Assembly (NCBI GenBank): GCA_963708255.1
Contig: CAVPSE010000002.1
Span: 437,842 to 501,841 of the forward strand
Reading direction: 5' to 3'
Origin: an uncultured Thermoplasmata archaeon
GTDB taxonomy: Archaea > Thermoplasmatota > Thermoplasmata > Lutacidiplasmatales > UBA184
Length of the DNA stretch: 64,000 nt
In this document: positions 11,180 to 64,000 of the stretch, in pieces
How positions within the stretch are numbered: position 1 is the stretch's first letter
How the letters are laid out: each line of letters opens with the position of its first letter
Translations under genes and position numbers: made by a program
The notes under the pieces: model-generated
Told to the model about the DNA's origin: nothing
The model's input: the letters and a program-made list of their open reading frames with translations, nothing else
Database searches by the model: none

Positions 11180-11926
11180 CCGTCGTTCGCCACCGCCTCC
11201 GCGCCCTACTGACCCTGACCTACCTCAACGGCGCGCTGCCGATCCGGACCCAGCCGCTGTACCTGATCAACATCGTCGCCTCCCCGCTCTCGTTCCTGTT
11301 CTTCATCACCATCGCCTCCAACGGCGTGCTCCTCGCGTACGGGATCGGCGGGGGGATGCTGATGACGATGCTCTCCATCGGCACCTCGCTCCAGACCGAC
11401 ATCTCCCACTACCGCCAGGACCTCAAGCTCCAGGACGTGGTCGTCGCCTCCCCCGTCGAAGCGTGGGTCTATGTGGCGGGGATCGCCCTCTCGGAGCTGG
11501 TCTACTCCCTCCCCGGCCTCGCGGTGTTTGTCCTGCTCTGGGGGTACTGCGGCTGGGCGAACCTCGCCGGCGGGCTCACCCTCATCCTTGTCCTGCTCCT
11601 GGTGTGGGCGTTCGCCTCCGCCCTCGGCTTCACCCTCGCCACGTTCCTGCAGGACGTTCGGGAGACGTTCGTCTTCTCCGGGATCATCTCTCTCGGGCTC
11701 TCCGTGCTCCCGCCGGTGTACTACCCGATCCAGCGCCTCCCGGGGTGGCTCGTGCCGCTGGCGTACGCTCTCCCCGACCACGTACGCGGCCGACCTGCTT
11801 CACCGGTCGTTCGGCGAGCCGGCGATCCCGGGGGTCAGCCCCCTCGTCGACTGGCTCGTGCTGATCGGGTTCACCGTGTTCCTTCTGGCGCTGGCGGCCT
11901 GGAAGGCGCGGTGGCGCGAGCCCTAG
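11176..11926 (+). CDS. ABC-2 type transporter permease
   Basis: GTGA overlap with the ATPase stop. Six hydrophobic segments (LYLINIVASPLSFLFFITIA... etc). Frame break ~11771-11782. The end comes from ORF 11471..11926. Confidence 0.6.
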
Positions 11927-11969
11927 TCCTGGCGTCGTTTTTTCCGTCGACCGGCCGTCGAGAAGACCG

Positions 11970-12256
11970 GTGGCCGACGCAAGCCCTTATGTACCGCCAC
12001 GCGGGTGCGCGAATCCCATGCTTCAGTTCGCCGACAACCGGAGCTTTTCTTCGATGGAGGACCGCCTCCAGCCGTGCACGTTCTGTGGCAAGGACCTGGT
12101 GGTCCTTCCCAACGACCGGCGCGGGGGCGCATGCTTCGATTGCCTCTCGCTCCTCGGCGAGGAGACGACCCCTTGCTCGGAGTGCGGATCGCCGGTCCAG
12201 GCCGGTACCCCGCCCGGCGCTGCCCCCGGTGCGGCGGGTCCGGCTGGCGCATCTAG
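11970..12256 (+). CDS. Small zinc-ribbon protein (four CxxC pairs), function unknown
   Basis: CTFCG...CFDC...CSECG, then after a frame break (~12195-12212) CPRCGG...*. The start is uncertain (ATG 11970, 12018 or 12054). Confidence 0.4.
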
Positions 12257-12293
12257 ACTTCCGGCGTCCTCGCCTTCGCGTCGGTTCTGCCGC

Positions 12294-12304
12294 TAACCTT
12301 ATCC
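12294..12304 (+). promoter_or_regulatory. TATA-like element upstream of tRNA-Ser
   Basis: TAACCTTATCC lies about 30 nt upstream of the tRNA 5' end (12332). Confidence 0.35.
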
Positions 12305-12331
12305 TTCGGATTCGGTCCGTCGACCGGGCGT

Positions 12332-12449
12332 GCCGAGGTGGCTCAGTCCGGTACGGCGCGAGTCTGGAAAGCTCGTGGCGGAATACGCCTCGGGAGTTCA
12401 AAGGCCGACGGCGGATCCGACCGCCCGGCGGGGATTCTCCCCCTCGGCG
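12332..12449 (+). tRNA. tRNA-Ser (anticodon GGA) with a 33-nt intron in the T-loop (12403-12435, position 59/60)
   Basis: Hand fold. Acceptor GCCGAGG/CCTCGGC. Anticodon stem CGAGT/GCTCG with loop CTGGAAA. Long variable arm GGCG-GAATA-CGCC. T-stem GGGAG (12392-96) pairs with CTCCC (12437-41) only if 12403-12435 is removed. Discriminator G. No encoded CCA. Confidence 0.85.
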
Positions 12450-12465
12450 CTCCCTCCCGGAGCCC

Positions 12466-12897
12466 ATGACCCTTCCCGTCCGTAGGACCCCCGCCGCGTT
12501 GCTCCAGGTCGACGCGATCCTGAGCCGGCTGGACGGTCGCCCCGCCCTCGACGAGGTGGCGCGATACCTCCTCGCCGAGTTCGCGGAGCTCGCCGCGGTC
12601 TCCTTCTATCGGGCCGATCCGCCACCGACGTCGTTCGCGGGGGGCACCGTTCCCGAGGGTCGGACGGTCGCGGAGATCCCTCCCTCCGTCGACGAGGCGG
12701 TGCGAGTGGGTCGGCGCGTCGACGACCCGGCTACCGCCGAGGTCGCCGTCCCGGTCCGCGAGGGGGAACGGACGGCCGGGGTGGTGCTCGCCCGCGCGTC
12801 GAAGGGCCCCCTGGACGCGGTCGACGGGCGGTTCCTCGCCGAGATAGCGAAGCGGTCCTCCGGCGCGATCGAGGACCGCCCGAAGCGACTGCTGTAG
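12466..12897 (+). CDS. Small stand-alone GAF-like domain protein
   Basis: Tail of track ORF 9760..12897 starting at ATG 12466. Strong G/C third-position bias. GAF-like pattern (...AAVSFYRAD...VAVPVREGERTAGVVLARAS...DGRFLAEIAKRS). The family call is tentative. Confidence 0.4.
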   Translation: MTLPVRRTPAALLQVDAILSRLDGRPALDEVARYLLAEFAELAAVSFYRADPPPTSFAGGTVPEGRTVAEIPPSVDEAVRVGRRVDDPATAEVAVPVREGERTAGVVLARASKGPLDAVDGRFLAEIAKRSSGAIEDRPKRLL

Positions 12898-13629
12898 CCG
12901 CCAACCCGGCCGACATCGCCCGGCGGGCGGCCCGGCGGGCCCATTCCGCGTCGAAGGGAGGGAATTCGCCGGGGAGGGACCGGCCGCGGACGCCGTGACG
13001 CCGCGACGGATCCCGTCGAGCGCCCGGGTGAGCTCGTCGACGATCGGAATGTCGGCGACCTGCGAGGTCCTCGAGAGGGGGTTGAGGTCGATCGAGATGA
13101 CCCGGAGGCCCATCCGCTTCAGTGCCGACGCCCGGTCGCCGTCCTCCAAGGGGATCACGCAAACGTCGGCGGCGCCGATCCCGCGGACGTCCACCCGACC
13201 ACGGTCCGAGTCGAGGCCCGGGACCCGGCCCGTCGGCCGGAGCCCGAGGACCGACCGGACCCCGGCGCCGGTCAGGCGCCGGGCGACCGAGCGGACCCGC
13301 GCGGGGGTCCGGTGGAACAGGTTCACTTCGATGCGGAGAGACGGGAGCGCGCGGGCCAGGGCCGCCACCTGGGGGGCGGCGAGCGCCGCCACGTTCCCGT
13401 TGACGCTGAGGACGGGACGGTGGGCGGCGAGGAGCCATTGGGCCGCGACCCGCTCGGCTCGTCGGGCGGACGGGATCGTCCGTTCACCGAGGAAGTAGTC
13501 GAACGCCTCCCCCCGGCCGTGGGCGATGAGCCCCTCGGGGACGACGAGGCCGGCCCGGGCTGCCTCGGCGAGGTCGGCCCGGACCTTCAGGCTCCGGTAA
13601 CGGGGATGCGAGGGGGAGATGCGGGTCAT
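12731..13629 (-). CDS. 4-phosphopantoate--beta-alanine ligase (archaeal phosphopantothenate synthetase)
   Basis: ORF 12343..13629, N-terminal 210 aa: HPRYRSLKVR...LIAHGRGEAFDYFLGE...VLSVNGNVAAL...EVNLFHRT...IPLEDGDRASALKRMG...ISIDLNPLSRT...IVDELTRAL. The 3' end is unresolved. No minus-strand stop exists in any frame between ~13020 and 12733. Confidence 0.8.
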
Positions 13630-13638
13630 CCGAGCGCG

Positions 13639-14390
13639 TTAGGCCCCGTCCGCGGGGGAGACCGGGTGGTCGGACGCCGCTGGCGCCGGGGCGGTGCCGT
13701 TGGGGGCGATGCCGGCGTGGGCCTCCAAGCTCGACACGCGCTGCTCCAGGGGGGCCAGCGCCTCCTCGATCGCCTTCGTGACCACGAGCTTGAGGCTGTC
13801 CTCGAGGGCGAGGAGGTCGCGGCTCAGGTCGGTGATCCGACGGGCGTTCTCGTTCAGGAGGAGCCGGGTCTGGGTGGCGACCCGGTAGGTGTCCGCCACG
13901 TCCTTGAGGACCTCCCGGGAACTGATCGCGAACGTTTCGATCGACTCCCCGATCGGCTTCCACCGCTGGTCGAGGTCCTTGAGCACCCGGGCGCCGAGCT
14001 CGCCGGAAAGGCGGTCGAGGCCTGGCCGAGAACCCCAGGTCCATCCGCTCGCCGACCGCCGCGGAGACCGCATCGACCCGCTCCCGGAGGTCGCCCGTGG
14101 CGGTCGTGGCCTGCTCTTCGACCCGGGCGACACGGTCATCGAGGGCCTGGAGCCGCGAAGAGGAGGTTCGAGTACGCGGTGCCGATCAGGGTATCGAAGT
14201 GCGACTGGTTCGACTCCTCCGCGCGGAGCAGGAGGTGGAGGACCCAATGCTCGCGTCCTTTGGTCTCAGAGAGGGGTCCGCGGTCGATCCGGTCGCGGCT
14301 GTCGCGGTTGTCGATGAGCTGCTGAAGCTCCTTGAGGACCTCCAGCCGAAGGGCGGCGGCAGGCGCGGCCGGCGGAGGCCTTCCGCTCAT
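13639..14390 (-). CDS. Coiled-coil protein, function unknown
   Basis: ATG 14390 (MSGRPPPAAPAAALRLEVLKELQQLIDNRD...HWVLHLLLRAEESNQSHFDTLIGTAYSNLLF). Joined through 2 frame breaks to LQALDDRVARVEEQATTATGDLRERVDAV... and to ORF 13639..14247 (LDRLSGELGARVLKDLDQRW...LAPLEQRVSSLEAH). Confidence 0.4.
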
Positions 14391-14413
14391 CGTCCGGCGA
14401 TTGGAGTCGAGAC

Positions 14414-14427
14414 GGTTAAATATGTTC
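14414..14427 (-). promoter_or_regulatory. TATA box for the coiled-coil gene (overlaps the sfsA stop codon)
   Basis: The minus strand reads GAACATATTTAACC, 26-33 nt upstream of ATG 14390. The TAA inside it is the sfsA stop. Confidence 0.5.
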
Positions 14428-15150
14428 TCGGCCGGGGTCAAGGACGGGGACGGGTCGGCCCCAGCGGACACCGTCGGGCCGTACCTCCAATCGGTAGGCG
14501 GATACGCCGACCCCTGCGCGGCGGGCCCGGTCGAACGCGGCGGCGAACGCTGGGTCGAGCGCTCGGTTGGGCGCGAACGCCTCCACATCGGATCGCTGGA
14601 TCGACGATGATCACGTCGGCCCGGACCCGGCGCGGCACGCCCTCGCCAGGGCGACCATGTGCCGGGTCCCGCGCTCGGTGGGGGCGTCCGGGAAATCGGG
14701 CGATCCGTCCCTCCTTCAGGTTGGAGCTCTTCACTTCGAGCAGGTGAACTGTCCGCGCGCTCGGGCGACCGAGGCGGGCGAAGTCGAACCGGTGGTGGCC
14801 GACCGTGAACTCGGACCGCCACCCGGTACGTGGGAGGTCGCCCACCTGTCCGGCCGCCAGGGCCCGGCCGACGATCCGATTGGCGAGCAGCGTATCGATG
14901 GAGACGAGGGTCCCATCATGAACGACCGAAACGAGCGTCGCGGACGTGGCGCGCGCCGGATTCCGGGCCGGACGGTGAACCCCCGAGTCTCCCCTGGGAC
15001 GAGCAGTTCGACCATCCGCCCCGGGTTGGGGACATGCACCGCCCGTGTTACTCCGCCCTCGAGCGGCCGGACCTCCGCAAGGAACCGGTTCGGGCGTCGT
15101 AGGAAGACGACCTCCTCGGGCGGGCCGTCGTACCGAAGGGAAACGCTCAC
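14416..15150 (-). CDS. sfsA: SfsA-family nuclease (sugar fermentation stimulation protein homolog)
   Basis: GTG 15150 (GTGA overlap with the ACAD stop). FLRRPNRFLAEVRPLEGGVTRAVHVPNPGRMVELLVPG, HHRFDFARL...VHLLEVKSSNL...ARFPDAPT..., ...VSAYRLEVRPDGVRWGRPVPVL. At least 3 frame breaks. Confidence 0.7.
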
Positions 15151-16312
15151 GCTAGTACCGCGTCGAAGCCGGGACCGAGGAGCTCCCGGGCCACGACGAG
15201 GCGGCGGATCTCGGAGGTGCCAGCGCCGATCTCCAGGAGCTTCGCGTCCCGGGCGAGACGCTCCAGCGGGGAGGTCCCGCATGTACCCATACCCGCCGAA
15301 GATCTGGATGGCATCGAGCGCGACCCGGGTGGACGCCTCCGAGCCGAACGTGAGGGCCGCGGCGCTCCACCGCATCGACCGCTTGTCGGTCTGGACGTGG
15401 GCGAGCGCCTGGTAGAGGAGGAGTCGGGACGCCTCCAGCAGCGTGTGCATGTTGGCGAGCTTCTCCTGGACGAGTTCGAACCGGCCGATCTGCCGGCCGA
15501 ACTGCTCACGTTCCTTCGCGTACGCGATGCGACCGGTCGAGGCACTCGGCCATAATGCCGACCGGGATGGCGGCCAGCACTGCCCGCTCGACGTTGAGCC
15601 CGCTCATCATCACCCCCGCCCCCTCGTTGAGCCCACCGACCAGGTGGTCGTGGGGGACCTCCACGTCCTGGAATGCGAGTTCACCGGTGGGAGAGCCCCG
15701 CATGCCCATCTTGTCGAGGCTGCGGGAAACGGTGAACCCGGGGGTCCCTTTCGGGACGACGAAAGCGCTGATCCCGCGGGCCCCGTCTTGGGGCGAGGTC
15801 TTCGCGTAGACCAGGAGGGTGTCGGCGACCGGGCCGTTGGTGATGAACTGCTTGGAGCCGTTGATCACCCAGGTGTCGCCCCGACGCTCGGCCCGGGTCC
15901 GTAGCGAGACCGCGTCGGAGCCACTGGACGGCTCCGTCAGGGCGAGGGCCCCGACGGTGGCGCCCGAGGCGAGCCCCGGGAGATACCGGGCGCGGAGGTG
16001 CTGGGAGCCGTTGCGGGCCAGGTTGTCGGCGCAGAGATTGGCGTGGGCGCCTACGGAGAGGGCCAGGGCCGGGCTGGCGCGAGCGATCTCTTCGAGCACG
16101 ACGGCCTGGGCCAGGTACGACTGTCCCAGTCCTCCGTCGGACTCGGGGAGCGTGACCCCGAGGAACCCATGTTCGCCGAGCCGCCGGAAGAGCTCCCTCG
16201 GGAACCAGTCCTCCCGGTCCATCCGGTCCGCCACGGGGGCGATCTCACGGGCCGTGAACTTCTGAGCGGCCTCCCTCAGGTCGCGCTCGATCGGGGACAG
16301 CTCGAGGTCCAT
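15147..16312 (-). CDS. Acyl-CoA dehydrogenase
   Basis: ORF 15506..16312 (LTEPSSGSDA...WVINGSKQFITNG...GMRGSPTGEL). Then ASTGRIAYAKEREQFGRQIGRFELVQEKLANM (ORF 14731..15450 frame). Then LERLARDAKLLEIGAGTSEIRRLVVAREL (ORF 15147..15545). Two frame breaks (~15525, ~15265). Confidence 0.85.
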
Positions 16313-46717: not shown

Positions 46718-48477
46718 GTCTCGCCCCCGAGGAACCGACGGAGCAGCGGGTTCATCTCCATCAGCTGCTCGCGGCCCATCGCCTCGTACAGATTGATGAT
46801 GATCCCCACGGTGAGCAGGACGCCGGTGCCGCTCGCGTTCCCGACCGTACCGATCAGGTCGGCGCCGGCCGCGAGGGCCCCGACGGCCGCCCCCGAGATG
46901 ACGGTGATCACGGGGATGTACCGCGCGAGCACGCGGCGGAGCACCCGGGGCTCACGGCGGAACCCGGGGATCTGCATCCCGGATGATTCGATCTGGCGGG
47001 CCACGGCCTCGGGCCCCATGTTCGTCGTCTGGATCCAGAACTTGGCAAAGATGATCGACCCGATCACCAGGACGGAGAAGTAGATCACGACGTGCGCGAT
47101 ATCCTGCCACCAGCTGTGGCCGACGAGGAAGTTCCCGTAGGTCTGATAGTTCAGGAGCGGCAGCAGCCATGACTCGAGGCCGTTGACCGTCGACAGGTAG
47201 TAGGCACCTCCGGTAAGAGGGGTCGTCTGCGACACTCCGAGCGCCGTCGCCTGGGCCGCCGTCGGGTACGACCCGACCCACCACTGGTGGCCGAGGTACG
47301 GGAAGTGCGAAAGGGTCCCGTTCCCCCAGAGCAGGATCGAGAACATGGAGACGTTCGCGAGGAGCGCGGACATCAGGATGACCGGGATGTTGCTAGCATA
47401 GATCAGCCGCAGGGGGTAACGGCCCCGGGCCCCCCGCGCCTCGGCGTGGGAGAGGGGGAGCTCGATCCGCGTCGATTCGGTCCATGCGACGATGAAGAAG
47501 ATCGTGGCCGTTCCGGCCAGGGCGACCACCGGGTTCGGCGAATGCAACAGCACCTGTTCCCAGCCGCCGCTCGCCATCTGGTTCGCATTGTAGTTGGTGA
47601 AGAACCAGATCGCCTTCGGGATCGTCCCGGCCGGAGGGTTCTGGGCGGAGATCGCGCCCGACGACGCCGGTAGCCAGTTGAGGGTCCCCTGAACGATCTG
47701 TTGCGAGACCCCGGCCGCGATGAACAGCGAGATCCCCGAACCGATCCCCCACTTGGAGACCACCTCGTCCATCAGGAAGACGAGGTAGCTGCCGAACACC
47801 AGCTGGGCGATGATCACGGTGTCCGCGAGGAGCATCCCGTTCCCCGGCGAGGCGACGTTGAGGGAGGAGATCAGCGACCCCGACGGGGTCAGGTACCCGA
47901 ACACCTGGGGGATCGCCTCCACGAAGATCATGGCGACGACGACGACCTTCTGGGAGCCCTGGTACATCCCCTTGTCCTCGTCGTCGGTGAGGTCGAGGTT
48001 GATGATCTTCGCCCCGGTGAACAGCTGCATGATGATCGACCCCGTGACGATGGGGCCGATCCCGAGGTGCATGAGCGTACCCTGGGCGCCCGCCAGGATC
48101 GCCCGGTAGCTCTGGAACAGGTCGATGACCGTCGCCTGGTCGACGCCGTAGAGGTAGATGTTGGTGAGGAGGAAGTAGAGGAGGAGGACGACGATCGTCC
48201 AGAACATCTTGGTCCGGAAGTGGACGTGGCCCTTCGGCTGGGCGACCGCCGGCATCCTCGACGTGATCGGCTTCAGTCCGTAGAGCCGGGACTTCGGGCC
48301 GTCGTAGGAGAGGCCCAGGAACAACAGCGTGCCGATCGCCGCCAGCGCGACGCCGGTGACGATGAGCCCGATGAGCGTCGGACGGGCCCAGTAGTAGTCG
48401 ACCAGGAGGAGCAGACCGAGGACGACGACGACCGGTACCGCCCAGCGGTAGTCCCGGGGGATCTCCTCCTCCGCCAT
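46714..48477 (-). CDS. secY: Preprotein translocase subunit SecY with ~60-aa N-terminal two-TM extension
   Basis: ORF 46714..48477, intact, 587 aa. Canonical SecY begins around ...LKPITSRMPAVAQPKGHVHFRTKMFWT. Confidence 0.95.
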   Translation of the reverse strand: MAEEEIPRDYRWAVPVVVVLGLLLLVDYYWARPTLIGLIVTGVALAAIGTLLFLGLSYDGPKSRLYGLKPITSRMPAVAQPKGHVHFRTKMFWTIVVLLLYFLLTNIYLYGVDQATVIDLFQSYRAILAGAQGTLMHLGIGPIVTGSIIMQLFTGAKIINLDLTDDEDKGMYQGSQKVVVVAMIFVEAIPQVFGYLTPSGSLISSLNVASPGNGMLLADTVIIAQLVFGSYLVFLMDEVVSKWGIGSGISLFIAAGVSQQIVQGTLNWLPASSGAISAQNPPAGTIPKAIWFFTNYNANQMASGGWEQVLLHSPNPVVALAGTATIFFIVAWTESTRIELPLSHAEARGARGRYPLRLIYASNIPVILMSALLANVSMFSILLWGNGTLSHFPYLGHQWWVGSYPTAAQATALGVSQTTPLTGGAYYLSTVNGLESWLLPLLNYQTYGNFLVGHSWWQDIAHVVIYFSVLVIGSIIFAKFWIQTTNMGPEAVARQIESSGMQIPGFRREPRVLRRVLARYIPVITVISGAAVGALAAGADLIGTVGNASGTGVLLTVGIIINLYEAMGREQLMEMNPLLRRFLGGET

Positions 48478-62178: not shown

Positions 62179-62804
62179 TTGAGGAGGGCCCTTGCGAAGC
62201 CGCACCTCCGCGTCGCGGGCGTGGATGATGGACCGTTCCGCCGCCGCCAGCGGTACGCCCCTCTGGCGGCGGTCGTCATCTCGACCCCCGACGAGCTGGA
62301 GGGGGTCCGGGTCGGCGCAGTGCGGGTCGACGGGCGGGACGCGACGACGGAGATCGTCCGCCTCCTCCGGTCGACCGATCAGTGGGACGGTGTGCGGGCG
62401 GTCCTCCTCGATGGGGTGGCGTTCGGCGGCTTCAATGTGGTGGACCTCGACCAGCTCCATCGGCGGCTGCGTCGCCCGGTCATCGCGGTGACACGGCGCC
62501 CGCCGGATTTCCGGCGGATCCACGATGCCCTCACGAAGTACTTTCCCCGCGACGCGCGGGCCCGCTGGGCCCGGCTCACCGCCCGGCCCCTGTTCCGGGT
62601 CCCCACCGAAGGCGAGCCGCTCCTCGCGGCGTGCTCGGGATGCACCCGAGCCGAGGCGCTCCAGGTGATCCGCCGTGCCACCCGCCGGGGTACTGGCCCG
62701 AGCCGCTCCGCTGGGCCCGGCCGATCAGCCGCGCCGTCGGCCGGCCGGTCGGTGGGGCGGCCCGCCCCCGGTCCGATCGACGCCGTCGAGCGGCGACTCC
62801 TTAA
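62179..62804 (+). CDS. DUF99-family (endonuclease V-like, UPF0215) protein
   Basis: TTG 62179. LRVAGVDDGPF...VRVDGRDATTEIV...VLLDGVAFGGFNVVDL...PVIAVTRRPPD. Frame break ~62690, then PEPLRWARPISRAV (ORF 62382..62804). Confidence 0.5.
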
Positions 62805-62829
62805 ACCCGGGCCCCCCTCGACGTTCCGC

Positions 62830-62935
62830 GGGCCTGTAGCTTAGCTCGGACCAAGCACCGGCCTTCTAAGCCGGAGAACTCGGGTTCAAAGGCGCCGGCG
62901 TGGGAGCGCCGGAGCGGAAACTCCCGACAGGCCCG
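62830..62935 (+). tRNA. tRNA-Arg (anticodon UCU) with a 31-nt intron in the T-loop (62891-62921, position 59/60)
   Basis: Hand fold. Acceptor GGGCCTG/CAGGCCC. D-stem GCTT/AAGC. Anticodon stem CCGGC/GCCGG with loop CTTCTAA. T-stem TCGGG (62880-84) pairs with CCCGA (62923-27) only after removing 62891-62921. CCTTAAAC lies ~25 nt upstream. Confidence 0.85.
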
Positions 62936-63099: not shown

Positions 63100-64000
63100 T
63101 CAGGCCGAGCCGCCGCTGACCTCGGCCTGGCAGCGGGCGCAGAGGATCGACCCCCGACCGGGCGGCAACGCGTCCCCGCAGAGGGGGCAGGTCGCCCGGG
63201 AGTCGGCCGCCGCCTGGAGCTCCATCACACTCGTCCGGAGGGCGGCGTTCGGCATCGGACCGGACCGCTCGCCGGCTCCGGGGGCCGTGCCGGTCGCGCC
63301 GAACGCGTCGAACCGGGGACGGTAGACCCCCGTCCGCTTGTCGTACGTCGCGAGCCCCCGGGCGGTGAGCCCCTGGAGCGCGGAGCTTCCCATCTCCAGT
63401 ACCCCGCCAAGGATGTGTCCCATCTCCAGGGCCGTCAGCCCATGGGTCTCGACCAGGATCTCCAGGGCCCGGGAGATGGTGATCGGCAGCTCGCCGCGGG
63501 CGACGTACCCGTCGATCGCGAAGGAGATCCGGGAGGAACGGCGGACCCGGCGCTCGAGCCCGAGCCGGCCCGCCCGAGGGTCCTTCTGGAGCGCGTTATC
63601 GATCAGATCGAACTCGAGCCGGTACCGCTCGTCCGCCGTGTAGAGGAGGATGGCGATACAGAAAGGGAGGACCCGGTTCGAACGCGCGAACCGCGCCGCG
63701 AGCCCGATGGGGTCGAGGGCCATCTTCGGTCCGCCGCCCGTCGGGCCGGGACGCGGGGCATCGTACTCGGCCGCGAGCCGAGGGATGTAATGCTCGCGGA
63801 GCAGGACCCGAACGATGGCGCGACGCGAGGGCCCGCGACGTGCGATGGGAACGATCTCGGCGCTCCCGTCCGCGGCGAACTCCAGTCGTTCGAACGGGGT
63901 GATCCACTCCCAGGCGCGGGGGTCCCGGGGCGGGTCGGCGAGGGTGAGTTCGACGGTGTCGAACGTGGTGGAGAGGTCGGCGAGCGCCGCGAGGATGGAC
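63100..64000 (-). CDS. Hypothetical protein, wHTH-like region plus C-terminal CxxC...CxxC zinc ribbon (5' end beyond window)
   Basis: ORF 63100..63723 stays open in the same frame up to the window edge (…ILAALADLSTTFDTVELTLADPPRDPRAWEWITPFERLEF…KMALDPIG…). Ends …TCPLCGDALPPGRGSILCARCQAEV. Confidence 0.35.
   Translation of the reverse strand, partial: SILAALADLSTTFDTVELTLADPPRDPRAWEWITPFERLEFAADGSAEIVPIARRGPSRRAIVRVLLREHYIPRLAAEYDAPRPGPTGGGPKMALDPIGLAARFARSNRVLPFCIAILLYTADERYRLEFDLIDNALQKDPRAGRLGLERRVRRSSRISFAIDGYVARGELPITISRALEILVETHGLTALEMGHILGGVLEMGSSALQGLTARGLATYDKRTGVYRPRFDAFGATGTAPGAGERSGPMPNAALRTSVMELQAAADSRATCPLCGDALPPGRGSILCARCQAEVSGGSA

Follow-up and report, generated by a model that had tools for sequence, protein, structure and literature searches.

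How can a tRNA gene be interrupted in the T-loop, between positions 59 and 60, and still give a functional tRNA, and is such an interruption the accident of one gene or the habit of a lineage? The question is raised by a tRNAArg(UCU) gene in a 64,000-nt stretch of DNA (hereafter the window) from an uncultured Thermoplasmata archaeon of the Lutacidiplasmatales (positions 437,842–501,841, forward strand, of contig CAVPSE010000002.1, GenBank assembly GCA_963708255.1). As judged from sequence and comparison, 62830–62935 is very probably a functional tRNAArg(UCU) gene, split at T-loop position 59/60 by a 31-nt archaeal protein-spliced intron of the bulge–helix–bulge (BHB) type. Its parts are the following:

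62830–62890, plus strand: 5′ exon of tRNAArg(UCU), from ARAGORN on the spliced sequence and the Rfam tRNA match
62891–62921, plus strand: intron of 31 nt, GGCGCCGGCGTGGGAGCGCCGGAGCGGAAAC, at tRNA position 59/60
62922–62935, plus strand: 3′ exon, with U60, CCCGA (62923–62927), CAGGCCC (62928–62934) and the discriminator G (62935)
62885–62888, plus strand: 5′ strand of the central helix (helix H), U54 U55 C56 A57, opposite 62919–62916
62889–62891, plus strand: 5′ bulge, A58 A59/G, predicted cut 62890/62891, geometry from sequence
62920–62922, plus strand: 3′ bulge, A C/U60, predicted cut 62921/62922, geometry from sequence

With the intron in brackets, the gene reads GGGCCTG TA GCTT AGCTCGGACC AAGC A CCGGC CTTCTAA GCCGG AGAAC TCGGG TTCAAA [GGCGCCGGCGTGGGAGCGCCGGAGCGGAAAC] T CCCGA CAGGCCC G. 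The 5′ exon comprises the 5′ strand of the acceptor stem, the D-arm, the anticodon arm (TCT), the variable loop and the 5′ strand of the T-stem (62880–62884), and its last part is formed by T-loop bases 54–59, TTCAAA (62885–62890). The 3′ exon stops at G62935, and the CCA end is not encoded. In the intron, a first base G is followed by a hairpin (62892–62915, loop 62901–62906), by GGAA (62916–62919) and by a terminal AC. ARAGORN makes no tRNA call in the unspliced window. Once 62891–62921 is removed, it calls tRNAArg(tct) as a perfect cloverleaf, with a 7-bp acceptor stem, the T-stem TCGGG/CCCGA and a 7-nt T-loop, TTCAAAT; the exon joint expected in the spliced tRNA is GGGUUCAAA/UCCCGA (the slash marks the joint). 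The Rfam tRNA model matches the interrupted gene over 62830–62888 with 32.5 bits (gathering score 29), skipping the T-arm.

The T-arm and the insert can adopt a BHB fold. In helix H, UUCA faces GGAA (62916–62919), with the pairs U-A, U-A, C-G and A·G. The inner helix consists of GC/GC, a G·A mismatch and CCGGCG/CGCCGG, and is closed by the loop UGGGAG. As in the strict helix–bulge–helix–bulge–helix form (hBHBh′), two 3-nt bulges on opposite strands surround a 4-position helix, with the caveat that this helix is made of three standard pairs and A57·G. The flanking helices are present as well: the outer h is the 5-bp T-stem, which is invariant, and the inner h′ is the hairpin of the intron. Assignment to a relaxed BHB class (hBH, HBh′ or BHL) was considered and rejected, both 3-nt bulges being intact and helix-closed on either side. 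The 59/60 geometry copies that of the canonical 37/38 site because a stem of 5 bp and a loop of 7 nt, split after base 6, make up the T-arm as they do the anticodon arm. The T-arm with its insert has a folding energy of −25.7 kcal/mol (z = −2.68; 0/200 shuffles are as stable), and the minimum-energy fold contains the T-stem and the hairpin. The first-pass annotation, which was based on the letters of the window and its open reading frames (ORFs), had described a 31-nt insert at 59/60, the T-stem TCGGG/CCCGA and the T-loop TTCAAA+T left by its removal, and a hand-drawn fold with helix H, both bulges, the inner helix and its loop. That description stands: the cloverleaf is restored on removal, stem and loop both appear in the ARAGORN call, and each element of the fold is found where it had been drawn.

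A BHB scan was made in which every (position, length) pair able to form an outer helix, a 4-position helix and an inner helix with two 3-nt bulges was spliced and then passed to ARAGORN. The filter is passed by 0.17% of the (position, length) pairs in 1.3 Mb of related DNA, and the intron site defined by the cloverleaf passes it in both tRNAs of the window, tRNAArg(UCU) and a tRNASer(GGA) described below. The scan gives about 0.6 false positives per 64 kb, and conservation is needed as a second filter. About a dozen other tRNA calls in the 1.3 Mb were discarded as false positives, since they lie in coding DNA and lack the tRNA invariants; a "tRNA-Val(GAC)" reported by plain ARAGORN in one related locus (L055) was discarded on the same grounds. 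Because the scan does yield false tRNAs in coding DNA, the decisive evidence is comparative.

Orthologues of tRNAArg(UCU) were gathered with a profile of the protein encoded by the gene before it, which served as synteny anchor:

62218–62844, plus strand: DUF99/Endo_dU gene (Pfam PF01949, E = 1.8e-42)

The profile gave 80 loci (numbered with the letter L below) in archaeal assemblies taken at one genome per species. All come from metagenome-assembled genomes (MAGs) of Thermoplasmata from soil, peat or sediment ("Lutacidiplasmatales"/TMEG-like), including UBA184 and AcS/SubAcS MAGs. Two of the 80 stop at a contig edge. In 76 of the 78 assessable loci, tRNAArg(UCU) stands directly after DUF99, each time with an insert of 28–36 nt exactly at 59/60. 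The exons are strongly conserved: of 75 exon columns compared in 77 sequences, 62 show no variation and another 3 are conserved at ≥90%, and the 3′ exon is invariant, discriminator base excepted. The interior of the intron varies freely, and only its second base and base −5 are invariant. The first intron base is G in 71/76 orthologues and base −2 is A, again in 71/76; base −1 is variable.

The pairing is conserved together with the exons. Among 76 distinct Arg sequences, U54 faces A or G (38/38), U55 faces A or G (65/11) and C56 always G (76/76). Residue A57 is opposite a purine (G in 75/76 loci, A in one) and forms a standard pair in 0/76 sequences. Over the alignment, 94.6% of the cells are paired, against 32.7–52.0% when the partners are slid by 1–3 columns; for covariation the score is 0.185, whereas shuffles give 0.088 (0/500 reach the observed value). 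In the hairpin of the intron, compensatory changes occur in 9/10 pairs and 91% of the inner-helix cells are paired; RNAalifold, on its own, predicts the T-stem and the intron hairpin. The Arg intron is best explained as an old one, passed on vertically within a clade of high-GC Thermoplasmata from soil and peat (Lutacidiplasmatales/TMEG-like).

The upstream DNA carries a further conserved element:

62801–62805, plus strand: TATA-like A/T box TTAAA, 25–29 nt upstream of tRNAArg, with a purine A at −34 (62796)

Upstream of 78 orthologues, positions −29 to −26 (consensus TTAA) are 83–96% A/T in surroundings of about 85% G+C, and positions −34/−33 are 59–81% A/T, mainly A. The box lies within the poorly conserved 3′ end of the DUF99 ORF. 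Together with the A-rich step, it is the probable archaeal TATA/BRE promoter of tRNAArg. The DUF99 ORF itself extends 15 nt into the tRNA, with its stop codon TAG (62842–62844) inside the D-arm.

In the precursor, the T-stem would act as outer helix and the GC hairpin of the intron as inner helix, and the T-loop residues U54, U55, C56 and A57 would pair with GGAA at the 3′ end of the intron to form the 4-position central helix. The 5′ bulge would then be made of A58, A59 and the first intron base, and the 3′ bulge of the last two intron bases and U60. The splicing endonuclease EndA, whose cut in each bulge follows the second base, would cleave at 62890/62891 and 62921/62922, and an RtcB-type ligase would join the exons into the T-loop UUCAAAU. 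Archaeal EndA recognizes the BHB motif wherever it is located, including in rRNA and mRNA precursors (PMC6379350). Since U54–A57 would be sequestered before splicing, formation of the T-loop/D-loop elbow and the T-loop modifications should follow splicing.

Several points weigh against a functional, spliced tRNAArg. We infer splicing, the cleavage sites and ligation from the fold and from the in vitro cleavage known in ARMAN-2. Helix H has only three standard pairs, with a purine–purine mismatch at its fourth position. It is open in the minimum-energy fold; the BHB form with three standard pairs lies 2.9 kcal/mol higher, and helix H is therefore marginal on its own. In two loci (L045 and L054), there is no tRNAArg gene after DUF99 although the downstream DNA is present; in these genomes the gene presumably sits elsewhere. 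The Thermoplasma-type α′2 endonuclease is classed as narrow in specificity (PMC6379350), and Cluster II Euryarchaeota, including Thermoplasmata, are reported to encode only α′2 EndA (PMC5829648). A phmmer search with the EndA of M. jannaschii (a query that checks out, matching PDB 1A79 with E = 7.9e-111) found no match among the ORFs of the window and of 200 loci, which represent only small fractions of the genomes, so that this absence is uninformative.

The insert in tRNAArg is not alone. The window holds a second interrupted tRNA gene, and a third species lies beyond its end:

12332–12449, plus strand: tRNASer(GGA) with a 33-nt intron (12403–12435) at 59/60, called by ARAGORN after splicing
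L011:18799–18904, minus strand: example of tRNAAla(GGC) from the loci L001–L078, whose counterpart in the window would fall just past base 64000

The tRNASer(GGA) and tRNAArg(UCU) of the window share the site and the junction architecture, with the identical junction GTTCAAA/GGC, as the first reading of the window had claimed. With a permissive Rfam scan, these two remain the only tRNAs of the 64 kb. Orthologues of tRNASer(GGA) occur beside a phosphopantothenate synthetase gene (L201–L205) and all have a 33-nt 59/60 intron; that of L201 is identical to the one in the window. Locus L204 is on the same contig as L045 (JAKIVU010000001.1, MAG AcS1-36), and its tRNASer(GGA) is among those with the 59/60 intron. 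The tRNAAla(GGC) gene lies some 7 kb downstream of DUF99, in opposite orientation, with a 28–36-nt 59/60 intron in 46/46 of the loci having the region (46 of the 80). Its helix H is U:R, U:R, C:G and A·G in 46/46, with a standard pair for A57 in none. Compensatory changes occur in 10/10 pairs of the intron hairpin over the 46 genes, and the G3·U70 pair typical of tRNAAla is retained.

Further species came from a scan of metagenome contigs with the junction pattern GTTCAAAGG…CGGRRANTC. Ten of the 120 matches become tRNAs on splicing, all on contigs of 64–73% G+C: Met(CAU) three times, Ser(CGA) twice, Leu(UAA), His(GUG), Arg(UCU) twice and Ala(GGC). On viral contigs, used as control, 0/120 matches to the same pattern give a tRNA after splicing. 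A protein encoded on a Met(CAU) contig has close homologues named Thermoplasmata, and it led to five more loci (including two NCBI Thermoplasmata MAGs) in which tRNAMet(CAU) has a 31-nt 59/60 intron, detected here independently of the pattern. The 59/60 introns of Ala(GGC), Ser(GGA) and Met(CAU) are thus on identified Thermoplasmata contigs; those of Ser(CGA), Leu(UAA) and His(GUG) are on high-GC metagenome contigs. The neighbor of tRNAMet(CAU), tRNAAsn(GUU), is intronless in the 7/7 loci examined, including L164, the contig that supplied this protein. In total, at least seven tRNA species have a T-loop intron and at least one (Asn) is without. We did not observe 37/38 introns in the DNA examined, a sample of a handful of genome regions. 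The first-pass annotation had suggested a lineage-wide habit and proposed a survey of the other tRNA genes for 59/60 interruptions. The habit is upheld by the Arg intron of 76/78 assessable genomes and by the Ala(GGC), Ser(GGA) and Met(CAU) introns of relatives, and the survey, over the genome regions examined, found the interruption in further tRNA species; with tRNAAsn(GUU) intronless, the habit is not universal. The 59/60 introns are best explained as a set kept in many, although not all, tRNA genes of the lineage.

Other explanations have to be weighed against this one. With ARAGORN blank and an Rfam score barely over the threshold, the tRNAArg could be a disrupted pseudogene, or its insert an artefact of assembly or a chimera. 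Either is extremely improbable. The same interruption recurs in 76 independent assemblies from many studies, which excludes the artefact that the first-pass annotation had envisaged; the exons are under strong purifying selection, the fold of the insert is kept by compensatory changes, the promoter box is conserved, and an intact second copy is not seen in any of the loci. Conserved exons, compensatory changes in the hairpin, the conserved A/T box and the recurrence together rule out an assembly artefact and a decaying pseudogene. It is scarcely more credible that the mature RNA keeps the insert, with a T-arm enlarged by it, or that the insert acts as a small RNA in its own right, for instance a C/D-box guide. 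We found no support for this idea, which comes solely from the haloarchaeal tRNATrp, whose intron also serves as a guide RNA (PMC4090602). The C (RUGAUGA) and D (CUGA) boxes are missing from the 31 nt, and conservation is limited to the BHB bases, the interior varying provided that pairing holds. An enlarged T-loop would also occupy U54, U55, C56 and A57, which are needed for the tRNA elbow.

It is rather unlikely, although less far-fetched, that a single mobile intron spread between genes and gave rise to the introns of the window and of the other tRNAs, as has been proposed for Thermoproteales, with the shared junction reflecting common descent. All the families begin with G-G (or N-G) and finish with C-G-G-R-R-A-N; their lengths are similar (28–36 nt), the insertion site is single, and the exon partner UUCA is alike in all these tRNAs, so that one intron could serve any of them. 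Most of the shared bases, however, are structural, since GGRR must face UUCA, and the remaining ones are in bulges or in the first inner pair (G:C), where a preference of the endonuclease gives the same result. As the shared ends are all pairing, inner-pair or bulge bases, endonuclease preference and common descent give the same picture. For four of the seven families, moreover, the likeness is circular, since they were found with a pattern imposing these ends. When the cores of Arg and Ala introns are compared over 46 genomes, the mean score is 0.76 within the same genome and 0.22 across genomes, a difference that is not significant (permutation p = 0.095). The families also keep their own signatures over 46–76 species: Arg introns have C/T as third base (I3) and Y:R at I3:−8, and Ala introns have G and G:Y at these places. 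Among the Ser(GGA) loci, 4/5 have C as first intron base, and two Met(CAU) loci have A. Between Arg and Ala there is, in these sequences, no sign of recent intron movement or gene conversion, and the spread by transposition suggested in the first-pass annotation on the model of Thermoproteales is not borne out, given the outcome of the Arg/Ala core test and the signatures kept by each family. An ancient burst from one founder intron is possible; the idea is appealing, since every tRNA offers the same exon partner.

How do the 59/60 introns, read as an old and mostly retained set, compare with known systems? Position 59/60 is among the listed non-canonical intron sites of archaea (PMC4090602). 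In ARMAN-2, 59/60 introns occur in tRNACys(GCA) and tRNAPro(GGG), and the former was cleaved in vitro by the ARMAN-2 ε2 enzyme (PMC3239211). The introns known at 59/60 in ARMAN-2, Crenarchaeota and Thermoproteales have in common with the present ones the site, the short length, the protein-spliced class and a BHB at the exon–intron borders, and the Pro(GGG) intron of ARMAN-2 is of the strict hBHBh′ form (PMC3239211), as in the tRNAArg here. ARMAN-2 and Crenarchaeota differ in having broad-specificity (αβ)2 or ε2 endonucleases, introns scattered over many positions, with several often in one tRNA, and motifs that are often relaxed. In the Thermoplasmata lineage, there is a single site with one intron per gene, and a near-strict motif with a fixed purine–purine mismatch; the intron has stayed in place across many species. 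The likeness to a canonical 37/38 hBHBh′ intron is close: a 5-bp stem, a loop split after base 6 of 7 with loop bases 1–4 paired to the 3′ end of the intron, two 3-nt bulges cut after their second base (predicted cuts in the present case) and an inner hairpin. Here, however, the T-arm replaces the anticodon arm, the exon contributes the near-universal UUCA to the central helix instead of an anticodon-specific sequence, and the D-loop/T-loop elbow should be impossible in the precursor until it is spliced.

As in the Thermoproteales, for which transposition of introns was proposed (Fujishima et al. 2010, via PMC4090602), many tRNA genes of one lineage are intron-bearing. The transposition model is defined by very similar introns in unrelated tRNA genes, whereas the Arg and Ala introns here share only structure-constrained ends. 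The T-arm introns of nucleomorphs and of Cyanidioschyzon merolae also lie outside the anticodon loop and depend on BHB-like motifs (PMC4090602). They differ in belonging to eukaryotic nuclear or nucleomorph genes, in being in some cases only 3 nt long and in the enzyme complex that is used; no relationship is implied. The paper on the Lutacidiplasmatales (PMC9287336) does not mention introns, and we found no description of tRNA introns in Thermoplasmata, Thermoplasmatota or Lutacidiplasmatales in the open-access literature, which is not proof of absence. The 59/60 BHB intron is therefore of a kind already known, from Crenarchaeota and ARMAN-2, and its occurrence in this group of Thermoplasmata is previously undescribed within that literature.

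Heavy use of non-canonical intron sites is linked to broad-specificity endonucleases, and in Euryarchaeota with α4 or α′2 endonucleases the introns are described as nearly confined to 37/38. A clade of Thermoplasmata in which at least seven tRNA species share a single non-canonical site, fixed over dozens of species, runs counter to this textbook correlation between site and enzyme, and the finding matters because Thermoplasmata are expected to have a splicing endonuclease of narrow specificity. With one site, one intron per gene and many orthologues, the clade offers a natural system for the study of intron gain, of intron retention and of what a "narrow" endonuclease requires.

There are also consequences for annotation. 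The Rfam tRNA model gives about 70 bits to the intact Asn genes, 29–37.5 to the intron-bearing Arg, Ala and Met genes and 22.8 to the Ser gene of the window (gathering score 29). At the intron-bearing genes, ARAGORN makes no call or miscalls Arg with a wrong fold (window; L003–L051, L206–L209). The intron option of ARAGORN was tried and set aside: its output consisted entirely of spurious tRNAs, whose introns ranged from tens of nucleotides to well above 1000 nt, and of misfolded Arg calls. Such weak scores and missed calls imply that the tRNA counts used for MAG quality come out too low in this group unless a tool that models these introns is employed. By default, tRNAscan-SE 2 does look for them (PMC8450103).

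On why such introns are kept we offer a speculation, to which we give little credence as it stands: a single short intron cassette would have colonized many tRNA genes at 59/60 in the ancestor of the clade, and would have been kept since for a benefit at the level of the gene. Colonization would have been possible since almost all tRNAs present the same T-loop partner, UUCA, and since the T-arm would mimic the anticodon arm already recognized by a strict BHB endonuclease. A candidate benefit is the disruption of the T-arm sequence that integrases use as attachment site; intronless tRNA genes, such as that of tRNAAsn(GUU), would remain targets of integration. If true, this would be the first euryarchaeal order in which the T-loop has largely taken over from the anticodon loop as the site of tRNA introns, and this with no broad-specificity endonuclease.

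In L208, a Phage_integrase gene (11278–12381) stands immediately after the intronless tRNAAsn(GUU), and the interval between Asn and Met varies in length and gene content between genomes (L206, L207 and L209, around 11350–15840). The single case of L208 suggests integration at the intronless Asn gene, and it fits the proposal that introns protect tRNA genes from integration (PMC4090602). A search for an attachment-site repeat of tRNAAsn near the L208 integrase and in the variable DNA of L206–L209 gave nothing longer than 13 nt.

A gene with a Trm56 domain is found about 5 kb from the Asn/Met pair (L206:4481–4987, L207:5179–5688, L208:5168–5677 and L209:5164–5673); Trm56 methylates C56 of the T-loop. 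The window has a G+C content of 67–73% and includes an archaeal ribosomal-protein operon. The homologues of its DUF99 protein carry the name "Thermoplasmata archaeon"; protein identity to the relatives is 47–64% for DUF99 and 74–84% for the synthetase, and the gene order is shared, from which the window probably belongs to the Lutacidiplasmatales or to a close relative of that order. Genomes of Lutacidiplasmatales (formerly TMEG) are about 2.1 Mb long with about 69% G+C and come from acidic soils (PMC9287336). Elsewhere in the window, positions 48312–48388 (plus strand) give a weak match to the C/D-box family sR-tMet, with 25.7 bits (gathering score 50) and E = 2.2.

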